DNA from: a virus
Taxonomy: Duplodnaviria; Heunggongvirae; Uroviricota; Caudoviricetes
DNA length: 12,849 nucleotides
Virus record (IMG/VR): IMGVR_UViG_2654587686_000012
Strand: one strand, 5' to 3'
The first letter of the stretch is position 1, and every line of letters begins with the position of its first letter. Made by a program: the position numbers. Below are positions 9,001 to 12,000 of the stretch, piece by piece.

Positions 9001-12000
9001 TTTCTTCTTCAACGATGATTTCTGAAACATTCAATATTTCATTAGATTCGTTTTCTTTCTCAGAAGGATCAGGTAGTGATGACTCTCTAGGGGGAGTAAT
9101 ATGTGCATCTGTGAGAGGTAGCGCACGTAATTTTAATGGACGTTTTGGGATTCGTTCTCCGACCTCTTCTAAAAGACCGATTTTAATCATAAGACCAATC
9201 AATTCATTAACTGTCTTACGGCTACAGCCACAAACTTTACTTAACTTCGTTTGTGTTTCAAAACATATCCCCCCTGATTTCTCCCAATCTGAAACATAGC
9301 AATATAATTTTTGCATTTCTGCACTAAACTTCGCTTTTCCATCCTCAATATTTGAGGAGTAGATGAATTCAATCTCACAAAAGTAGTGTGGTATATTCAA
9401 AGTTCGGTCTTTAATTTCTCCTGTTTGTTGATCAACATACTGGTATTTTTCACGAATCAATTTAATTTTAGACATTAGAATTATCTCCTTATAAATCACG
9501 CTTAATGCGCTACTAAAGTGAATGAGGATCACTTACCCTTTTTTTGTTTGATGTTCTCTGCTGCTTCAGTAATGATTTCTAACATCAAATCACTGACCAT
9601 AATTTGCCTTTTCTTGGCTTCAGCAAATAAAATCTTGAAAATTTCAGGGTCAACGTGTAGGTAAGTGCGTGGAATTGGTTTCTTGGTTTCGCTCATAGTT
9701 TTCTCCTTCTCCTGTTATTATTCTTTCTCTGCTCCTGCCTTACGCAGTTCATCAATAATTTTTAGTGCATCGTCAAAACATTTTTCACGCTCTGGATAAC
9801 CACAGCGTCGCGCTGTGTTCCTGTTCATCCTTACTTTAAAACGATTGATCTCACCACGTTTCCAGGCTTCAACTACATCCTGGGGAGTGAAATACTTCAT
9901 TAATTAACCTCCTATTCTATTTGGTTAAAAGAAAAAACACCTTGCAAGCCTTGTTGGGCTTCAAAGTGCGGTGCATTGGTTTAATTACTTAGAGGATAAG
10001 AATGTTTTCTGTCCCTAATATTACTTTACCACGACTAAAAGCTTTTGTCAACCCCTATCCATAAAAATATTGATCATTTTCAGTGTGTTATAATTTTTCT
10101 TAGCAATTCGTGCTCTTACGGGTGCTCCTATTCTTCCTTATTCTCTAAAACGCTCTAAAACGCCCTCTGACGAGGTTTTGATAAATACAATACATTCACT
10201 TATGTAGAGGCTGTTTAGCTCGTCAGAGGCTTATTTAAGGGGCTTATTTTGTATTTGTTAGGTATATGGGAAGATGATGATAGATAAAATCTAATTTCAG
10301 ACATCTTATAAAATACCTGTAAAGCTCCTCAGAAGCTCTATAACGAGCTAATCTATTACCGCTAAGTGTTTCCCTGCCTTATATACGTTTAGCTCGCCTA
10401 CGGCTTGATTTAAGCGGTAGAATCTTATTTAACCTTCAACTACTAAAACCATTCTTTCTTTTTTGTTTGTTGTTGGTTGTTGTCTGTGTCTATGTGCTAA
10501 CATCGCTAACGCGTAGCACACAAGGTTATTGCACTCGTCAGAGTATTGCACAATAGATTTTCTCTTAAATAGATTGATGATCGTTAGATTGGCGTAAGCC
10601 TCATCAATGGAACTATTGAAGCGCACAGCGCAAGACTATTTAGCCTTACGCAAGCCGTAGGCTATTTGCACATAGTAGATTACATATTCGTTGTGAGCGG
10701 CATTAGCGAACATATATCTACTAACTAACATCAACAAACAAAAACTATGTGTTATGACAAGCAGTCTAACGACTAACACTCTAACTTGTGCAAGGTTCTG
10801 GCGAATGCCAATAGATTAAGGGATAGTCAAAGACTTCCTAACGGGTATCCCTATAATTATTCTTATAAAGATAAAAAAGAATTATATTATATAGTTTAAT
10901 AGTTAGTTTTATTATTAGTATTATAGATGTTAGTCTTATTGTGTAACCTTTCGTTACAACCAATCATCTGCCGATGTAACGTATCGTTACTACCGATGTG
11001 TAATATCGTTACATTCAATAATTAGTCTATGTAACGAATCGTTACTACAAAATTTCTTACAGAGAGTATTTCAGATAGCTGAATGTAACCCATCGTTACA
11101 TCCATCGTTACATCCATTTATCACATAACATCTGTGCAATGATCTTCTAAAAGTGTTTCTTACTATCAAAAATTAAACATCTAAAACAGGCTTAAATTCA
11201 ATGTAATTGATGATTAATCCCTGTGTAATTCCTACGTAAAAATTCAATGAAAAGTAGCTTAAAAGTGCAATTCTTACTTTCTTCACTTTTACATCACTTT
11301 CGCAAAGCCTTGTGTAATGCGGCATATAGCGCATCACTGCAAAATTGTTGCTCAATAAACGTTCTATCATTTGTCGAACAAGTTTTCTTTAATGCAACAA
11401 AAAATTATTTTTTCAAAATAAACACACCATTTAATAGCTTGCTAATTTTACCAAAACGTAACTACATGCTTCTCATGCAAGACGTGTAGTGATAAAGCAG
11501 GCTAAATCACCACACTAAAAACCTTCGAATTTCGTAGTGAAAAAAGTCCTTTACACACCTAATCAACACGATCAATAATCACTACACACAAATCAACACA
11601 GAAGGAAAATGAAAATGGCTAATATTGGATACATTAGGGTATCGACTGTGCAACAAAACACAGACCGTCAATTAGCTGGAGTAACTCTTGATAAAGTCTT
11701 TGAAGATAAAGCGTCAGGCAAGAACACTCAGCGCCCACAGTTTGAGGCAATGATGAACTATGTGCGGGAGGGTGACGTGTTACACGTCCATAGTATTGAT
11801 CGCCTTTGTCGTAATACAGCCGACCTTCTGGCAACGGTTGAGCAATTAACAGAGCGCGGCGTGTCTGTGCATTTCCATAAAGAAGACTTTAAGACAGGGA
11901 AGAACTCTCCCGCAGGGAATATGATGCTCACAGTGCTTGCAGCAGTGGCACAAATGGAGCGTGAAATGATGCTTGAGCGGCAACGTGAAGGGATCGCCGC

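Follow-up and report, generated by a model that had tools for sequence, protein, structure and literature searches.

The subject of this analysis is a long gap between genes in IMGVR_UViG_2654587686_000012, an IMG/VR virus record (Caudoviricetes) whose 12,849 nucleotides make up the window, that is, the whole stretch of DNA that was analysed. The gap (9901-11608) belongs to an integrated island that spans 12.4-13 kb and extends in the window from 376 to 12849 and beyond, and it separates a leftward operon, which includes the gene of a putative replication initiator (Rep), from a serine recombinase gene. An initial annotation had seen no convincing open reading frame (ORF) here and had proposed either a candidate noncoding RNA (ncRNA) locus or a cis-acting control region. 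The first observation holds: there are only scattered ORFs of 65-80 amino acids (aa), 13 relatives have retained none of them, in several relatives no ORF in the gap reaches 60 aa, and RefSeq places no coding sequence under the gap match in the listed Escherichia coli records, bar occasional insertion sequence (IS) elements. We also considered the small ORFs as genes and discarded them, as they are unconserved and the 84-94 aa ORFs of one variant type are mutually frame-shifted. A CRISPR array and a retron, both already set aside in the annotation, can stay so: Tandem Repeats Finder (TRF) and a repeat finder detected no repeat-spacer periodicity, and no reverse transcriptase domain was found in the 10 largest ORFs, with several smaller ORFs outside that scan. 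The operon, the gap and its right-hand neighbour comprise the following features:

9900 down to 1892, minus strand: leftward operon with two small ORFs, Rep, several unknowns, a capsid cluster, a tape-measure-like and a Dit-like gene
8801-9475, minus strand: Rep, a lambda-O-like initiator with a winged helix-turn-helix (HTH) N-terminal domain, the presumed iteron binder
9927-9968, minus strand: intrinsic terminator of the operon leader, a 12-bp stem with one bulge (9938-9968) and then UUUUUUCUUUU (9937-9927)
10023-10052, minus strand: P_left, promoter of the main operon (TTGACA, 17-nt spacer, TAAAGT, with TG)
10086-10094, plus strand: P_right, a candidate promoter read from the sequence (extended -10 TGTTATAAT, no -35)
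10130-10265: block A (unit 1), with a tandem CTCTAAAACG x2 (10143-10163), an 11-bp inverted repeat and GGCTTATTT x2
10300-10435: unit 2, a copy of unit 1 that has diverged; stem ACCGC (10358-10362) / GCGGT (10414-10418)
10460-10481 and 10723-10744: T/G-rich tract and complementary A/C-rich tract flanking module R, an inverted repeat of 22 nt (86%)
10621-10700: module R in reduced form, with hairpin P0 GCGC-ACA-GCGC (10621-10631), a hairpin at 10641-10664 and the anchor GTGAGCGG (10693-10700)
10840-10941: AT-rich tract (GC 18.6%), a probable DNA-unwinding element
10942-11122: iterons, palindromic TGTAAC-N5-GTTACA, perfect at 10943, 10976, 11031 and 11085, plus two or three imperfect copies
11215-11345: block C, conserved, with two CCYTGTGTAAT motifs 89 bp apart
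11484-11602: res-like array, about seven half-sites GTGTAGTGAT(A/T) that occur in either orientation and overlap a promoter-like site (11550-11579)
11609-12166, plus strand: serine recombinase of 185 aa (Pfam Resolvase, 1e-38)

Judged from its sequence, the gap is a mosaic of cis-acting parts rather than one locus, and it probably serves as the cis-acting hub of a satellite-like island, bringing together promoters, a terminator, an origin of replication and a res-like array. A gap of 1.0-2.9 kb is found at the same position in ~60 E. coli variants and in five other genera, and our comparisons draw on 60 distinct gap sequences gathered from E. coli genomes, IMG/VR and metagenomes. Of all the functional evidence, the co-variation between Rep and the iterons weighs most. 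Rep is modular, with an N-terminal DNA-binding domain that is swapped among variants (L002-L005) and a conserved C-terminal part (TDAHITPP ... SEIYDSIPF). Where the N-terminal domain is the same (Reps 95-96% identical overall), so are the TGTAAC-N5-GTTACA iterons, whereas a different N-terminal domain (one Rep 36% identical overall, a chimera 57%) goes with GTAGGAACTCATTTCCTGGGTAG repeats instead; the Rep of L005 is a chimera of the two types. Besides, the Klebsiella and Enterobacter relatives have TACATCATTTTGATGTA repeats in common, and their Reps, which are 57% identical to each other, share 29% identity with the Rep of the window, over the winged HTH only. Since the iterons and the N-terminal domain of Rep vary in step, we take this region to be a replication origin, presumably of the iteron type.

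Its anatomy is consistent with this assignment, in that a phased repeat cluster, an AT-rich tract and a cognate initiator matched to the iterons occur together. Iteron matches number 14, compared with 2.1 expected, a count that was reached in none of 200 shuffles, and the start-to-start distances between the first four copies of the underlying repeat family (D2) are 33, 22 and 33 bp, i.e. multiples of 11. Repeat excess was judged against 60 dinucleotide shuffles, inverted repeats being scored as the sum over the five best; in 10942-11122 (within the 10840-11130 region) the direct repeats sum to 69 versus 38.6 +/- 3.0 in the shuffles. The AT-rich tract, in which TRF detected about three 12-mer repeats (10885-10924; period 12, 3.2 copies), directly adjoins the iterons in every relative examined. 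Rep itself matches the replication-initiation and O-like families of PHROG and HTH_36 of Pfam, and is labelled nothing more specific than 'transcriptional regulator' in RefSeq. A ColE1-type, RNA-primed origin was considered and rejected, as Rep and iterons are both present. The origin would thus be composed of module R, the unwinding tract of 18.6% GC and four to six phased iterons bound by the N-terminal domain of Rep; beyond the anatomy and co-variation that are directly observed, Rep would have to bind these repeats and the origin to fire autonomously.

The predicted origin resembles that of phage lambda in its O-like initiator and in the phased palindromic repeats beside an AT-rich tract with a palindromic region beyond. 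In lambda, pR points at the origin, and in the island, too, a promoter ~0.75 kb away does so. However, the lambda origin lies inside the O gene, while that of the island is extragenic, 1.4 kb from rep and on the far side of the promoter, and the iteron sequences are unrelated. Origins of Staphylococcus aureus pathogenicity islands (SaPIs) and other phage-inducible chromosomal islands (PICIs), whose iterons flank an AT-rich region next to pri-rep, are similar in having initiator-specific iterons that vary among family members. In PICIs, the origin comes after rep, within one transcription unit; unlike them, the island does not place its origin after rep, lacks a primase-helicase and has a gap far longer than an origin needs.

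Module R, a GC-rich stretch, lies on the other side of the AT-rich tract from the iterons. Its anchors, (T)GCGC-ACA-GCGC(A) and GTGAGCGG, are common to both E. coli types (including the X-type), Klebsiella, Cronobacter and Enterobacter. In its fuller form, the module makes a three-way junction, and in five lineages helices P1-P3 differ in sequence yet pair by Watson-Crick rules throughout; this pair table was aligned by hand, and MAFFT could not keep the helices in register. The Pluralibacter relative (L151) has module R inverted together with the AT-rich tract, which ties the module to the origin rather than to P_right. Four relatives are without a recognisable module R, and a search of IMG/VR with the anchored pattern returned the two known E. 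coli types only, plus chance matches. Module R may act as RNA or as DNA, and on either strand.

On the operon side of the gap, the minus-strand promoter proposed in the initial annotation was recovered by our promoter scan (P_left; 10 of 12 positions, with TG). Its -35 element is invariant in the first 14 variants aligned, as is TTTGTCAA, which also occurs in the Klebsiella, Enterobacter, Citrobacter and Pluralibacter relatives. A GC-rich stem and a U run separate this promoter from the first ORF: the leader folds into a 5' hairpin and then the bulged 12-bp stem (-22.7 kcal/mol, z = -2.66), which is followed by U6CU4 on the minus strand, with the ribosome binding site (RBS; 9908-9913) and the start codon (9900) directly downstream. 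The terminator hairpin is found in all 37 aligned distinct leaders. Four pairs differ in the Klebsiella/Enterobacter leaders, and all four are compensated (TA>AT, TA>CG, GC>TA, GC>AT), while in the Citrobacter relative and in another one from Enterobacter, this position is taken by a terminator hairpin of unrelated sequence. One U.G pair, which would be C.A on the other strand, is invariant in the stem, and the consensus energy is -35.1 on the operon strand versus -26.6 on the opposite one; together, this argues that the structure is specific to the operon strand.

P_left would accordingly be expected to fire leftward into a leader of 85-90 nt that ends in a strong intrinsic terminator before the first gene. 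As the operon, rep included, sits behind this terminator, its expression as a whole would need read-through or antitermination. The terminated leader may be read through with the aid of a helper antiterminator, or it may itself be a small RNA. The succession of a strong promoter, a short terminated leader and a long operon resembles the pR'-6S RNA-tR' late control of lambda and other leader terminators; unlike in the lambda system, no Q-binding element, pause site or antiterminator was identified for the island, and the island leader could be a small RNA.

As for the opposite direction, the extended -10 that had been annotated on the plus strand is present in the sequence, but it lacks a -35, was not flagged by the promoter scan and is only moderately conserved, with TACATT in many variants and a 9-bp deletion just after the -10 in some. 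This candidate promoter would face the two duplicated hairpin units, block A and unit 2. The arms of the block A inverted repeat (10164-10174 / 10219-10229) enclose a 44-nt loop, and its tandem repeat was found by TRF. Identity within block A is 84-100% across all 60 distinct variants. In 46-48 of the 60, the stem has two A.C pairs at its centre (G.U if read on the minus strand), and Klebsiella has a different stem of 9-10 bp at this position. The idea of block A as a structured RNA was dropped, since RNAalifold covariance penalties were positive on both strands. Its tandem CGCTCTAAAA x2 (10143-10163) may resemble the boxA of lambda and rrn operons. A related motif, ACGCTCTGTAA, occurs after the last operon gene (1864-1874, minus strand), in the Klebsiella block A and, in other genera, on the right-hand side of the origin.

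The stem of unit 2 is replaced in the X-type allele by AATGC / GCATT, amounting to two compensatory pairs; the two stems are present in 17 and 26 of the 60 variants. More generally, two allelic sequence types coexist over 10265-10840, and the T/G-rich and A/C-rich tracts differ in length among variants. The direct repeat that the initial annotation had placed at 10213 and 10387 is real (20 nt at 80% identity, longer with a gap), and eight variants lack the DNA between its copies, i.e. are natural deletions. The mirrored 12-mers GCCTACGGCTTG (10396-10407) and CAAGCCGTAGGC (10651-10662), also noted previously, are indeed there but are not conserved; a conserved long-range helix between them was rejected, given that the pairing is gone in L003. 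The second 12-mer makes up half of the local hairpin at 10641-10664. Over 10100-10840, inverted repeats sum to 55 compared with 41.7 +/- 2.3 in the shuffles (maximum 49), and direct repeats to 49 compared with 42.2 +/- 2.0.

To the right of the origin, no repeat class rises above chance in 11130-11608 (dinucleotide shuffles). The next part in this direction, between the origin and the res-like array, is the conserved block C. It is ~85-99% identical in nearly all E. coli variants, whichever recombinase follows, and Cronobacter, Citrobacter and Pluralibacter have a core that can still be recognised. Single-base indels exclude that it is coding, and searches of block C gave no ORF, no repeat excess and no Rfam match. 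The E. coli and Citrobacter versions had no match in phage DNA, either. Beyond it, the stretch 11350-11608 is almost restricted to this serine recombinase allele, although the first 35-38 bases of the stretch persist in four variants that lack the gene. The res-like array contains a 10-nt perfect inverted pair plus direct copies within the 118 bp before the start codon. The closest solved structures to the recombinase are the Tn3 and gamma-delta resolvases (2e-27), and by analogy only, the array may be a res-like, autoregulated site of a resolvase, on which the serine recombinase is presumed to act. At this site, the enzyme would resolve multimers of a replicating circle and autoregulate its own gene. 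As in Tn3 and gamma-delta res, ~118 bp of short inverted half-sites lie upstream of the resolvase gene and overlap a promoter; unlike there, the half-site sequence is unrelated, and the likeness is one of half-sites, without an established three-subsite geometry or crossover dinucleotide.

The origin, the conserved promoter with its leader terminator and the res-like array support the cis-acting control region that the initial annotation had offered as one of its two options. The iterons and origin, the AT-rich tract, the leader terminator and the res-like half-sites were absent from that annotation. On the other hand, several points weigh against a hub built around a Rep-dependent origin. The family matches of Rep are weak (PHROG E 9e-6 and weaker; HTH_36 at 22.0 bits, below the 25-bit cut-off), and neither a DnaA box nor a site for integration host factor (IHF) could be established. 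Moreover, the origin accounts for ~300-500 of 1700 bases, which leaves over blocks A and C and most of 10265-10620; the block A stem is perfect in just 12 of 60 variants; and the case for a res site is a count of motifs in one allele.

The closest described parallel to such a hub is the non-coding region of PLE, the phage-inducible chromosomal island-like elements of Vibrio cholerae. In PLE satellites, ~3 kb of non-coding DNA adjoins a leftward gene cluster; the rightmost quarter of this DNA contains the origin, and the region gives rise to their most abundant transcript, an ncRNA that lies between inverted repeats and has antisense homology to ORF leaders (PMC7567579). Shared with the island are thus a gene-free, kb-scale region beside a leftward cluster, an origin at the right that is served by the element's own initiator, and inverted repeats in the remainder of the region (PMC7567579). 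By contrast, the RepA of PLE is of another family, PLE has no capsid gene, and its ncRNA was seen by RNA-seq, whereas the island is known from sequence alone. The parallel is therefore one of layout; no sequence or protein similarity was seen, and none was tested. What the gap holds is mostly ordinary machinery in an island family, and two conserved modules stay unexplained. It is conceivable, although we would not count on it, that module R and/or blocks A and C constitute a new kind of origin-linked structured element, acting as RNA or single-stranded DNA and shared across an undescribed but widespread satellite family, and that the terminated leader of P_left is a helper-phage switch, e.g. 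via an antiterminator. Either way, the mapped origin, main promoter, terminator and recombinase site offer handles on induction, the helper phage, and gene transfer or phage blocking, and functional work can be aimed specifically at the two conserved unexplained blocks and at the covarying hairpins of module R.

As an alternative, the left two-thirds of the gap (~10100-10840) might encode one or more regulatory ncRNAs, with the origin merely their right-hand neighbour; an RNA from P_right could, for example, pair with island mRNA leaders or control replication. We hold this account, taken as a whole, to be possible rather than likely. The extended -10, the excess of inverted repeats in this part, folding z-scores of -2.7 and -3.5 and the transcript from the equivalent PLE region, most abundant and antisense to ORF leaders (PMC7567579), would all fit, yet the z-scores are alike on both strands, as DNA palindromes would give, P_right is poorly conserved, and two allelic types and deletion variants exist side by side. 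Covariation, which the initial annotation had suggested as a check on the hairpins, is lacking in block A according to RNAalifold, but module R and the stem of unit 2 do show compensatory pairs. Rfam 15, which includes the C4/CI antisense RNAs, GOLLD and ROOL, had no match in the window at gathering score and only chance-level eukaryotic models at E up to 5, nor did it match the gaps of three relatives; a tRNA/tmRNA scan was likewise empty. Given no covariation credit for the conserved block behind it, a weakly conserved promoter, the allelic types and deletion variants, the tie of the best-supported hairpin module to the origin and the Rfam result, the single structured ncRNA that had been annotated behind the plus promoter is unsupported as stated. 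A further argument for ncRNA is a perfect 13-nt complementarity between the tail of block A (10230-10242, CTTATTTAAGGGG) and the leader of the Dit-like gene (2581-2593), which also exists in a divergent E. coli relative and whose target lies just upstream of the RBS of that gene. However, this match is borderline given 26 tests and is absent in Cronobacter, and we regard it as a lead, not a finding. GGCTGTTTAGC (10209-10219), beside CTTATTTAAGGGG, recurs inverted at this target. An ncRNA would be compatible with the hub and could add to it. A related thought is that module R and the neighbouring hairpins act as single-stranded DNA and not as RNA, providing signals for priming or helicase loading once the AT-rich tract melts, although this seems rather doubtful to us. 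Single-strand initiation (ssi) sites lie beside the AT-rich tract of the IncQ oriV, and G4-type priming signals are also known. In favour of such a role, the AT-rich tract separates module R from the iterons wherever the module is present, an inversion of the entire module with respect to the operon leaves this order intact, and the helices are kept by compensation and not by sequence. Against it, the island has no recognisable primase gene, module R is missing or unrecognisable in the four relatives mentioned above, and the copy in the window is down to two small hairpins. The likeness to the IncQ and G4 signals is one of position and co-inversion.

Two further accounts concern the gap as a site for packaging or as no functional unit at all. 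Block C, and perhaps block A, might be a packaging signal (cos or pac) for the terminase of a helper phage, since an island with a capsid gene, in which neither a terminase nor a portal can be recognised, would need a helper and a packaging site. Block C is, moreover, the most widely conserved non-coding block, and is kept where the capsid protein is only 41-49% identical. Even so, we think a packaging signal unlikely: searches of the gap against 50,697 phage records (megablast, blastn) gave no match or chance matches only, and block C showed no similarity to any of these records even at E = 10; a match to lambda cosN was at chance level only, and island-length metagenome contigs end at att sites without terminal overlap. 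Thus, neither phage similarity, cosN nor contig ends point to a cos or pac site, a result that is not final, as the helper phage was not identified. It appears very improbable that the gap consists of coding sequence in decay or of neutral filler. Cargo genes and IS elements are tolerated inside it, as would be expected of filler, but the gap recurs at the same place in six genera, some of its blocks are 84-100% conserved where neighbouring sequence has been replaced, and it contains no frame-consistent ORF remnants. For the origin and the terminator this account is contradicted, while it could apply to short variable stretches. The reading of the gap as a cis-acting hub remains the one we prefer.

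The island that would be served by this hub is flanked, in one matching E. coli chromosome, by a 43-bp direct repeat of the tRNA-Leu 3' end; its length there is ~12.4 kb, and it is ~0.5 kb longer in the strain of the window. The gap is 99.7% identical between the window and two E. coli chromosomes. Besides Rep, the island encodes a tyrosine integrase (540-1811) and, in the capsid cluster of the operon, a 127-aa protein followed by a 343-aa capsid-like protein, relatives of which carry Pfam Phage_cap_E; a 613-aa tape-measure-like and a Dit-like protein are also encoded in the operon. The 127-aa protein, preceding a lambda-gpE-like capsid protein, sits in the gpD position. Domain and PHROG scans recognised neither a terminase nor a portal among the island proteins, and it is for this reason that we label the island satellite-like. 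A tblastn search of phages with the capsid protein found nothing.

Among 5426 complete E. coli genomes, 742 match the gap, 192 of them over its full length. Relatives are integrated at tRNA-Leu, tRNA-Gly and other sites; in each of them a gap of 1.3-2.9 kb is free of genes, with the first small ORF to its left and a serine recombinase, a tyrosine recombinase or nothing to its right. The same layout is found in Klebsiella, Cronobacter, Enterobacter, Citrobacter and Pluralibacter, where the capsid protein is only 41-49% identical. Insertions into the gap occur as one cargo gene each in two metagenomic relatives, a 204-aa gene (L162, 3291-3905) and a Dam methylase gene (L164, 3002-3670), and as IS3 and IS1 elements in others (L006, L014; hits H1/H5, H77). 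A motif scan of GTDB genomes gave three true matches only, the rest being mostly chance matches in AT-rich genomes. Several metagenome contigs of 12.5-12.8 kb (L096, L100, L109, L113, L129) correspond to about one island, one of them at 83x coverage. Looking for circular or packaged forms among the metagenomes, we found island-length contigs ending at att sites, as described above, which may reflect either assembly breaks or excised copies. A literature search returned no published description of this island family, and a family of capsid-encoding, satellite-like islands in Enterobacteriaceae is thus apparently undescribed.

Next to the island, just outside the left attachment site (attL), the locus L001 (1-4641) contains genes for a large AAA-domain protein, a hypothetical protein and an HNH endonuclease. 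These genes may represent another island, defence-like in nature, that shares the tRNA site in tandem. A second gene-free stretch of ~0.9 kb (6530-7470) separates the early genes of the operon from its capsid cluster; it opens with a hairpin flanked by A and T runs (~6517-6566) that resembles a bidirectional terminator. A third stretch without annotated genes, ~1.1 kb long, extends between the recombinase gene and the tRNA, from 12167 to 12849 in the window and on to attR at ~13266. Its part at 12716-12849 stays 96-99% identical in relatives that are otherwise 66-85% identical, and may hold integrase arm sites.

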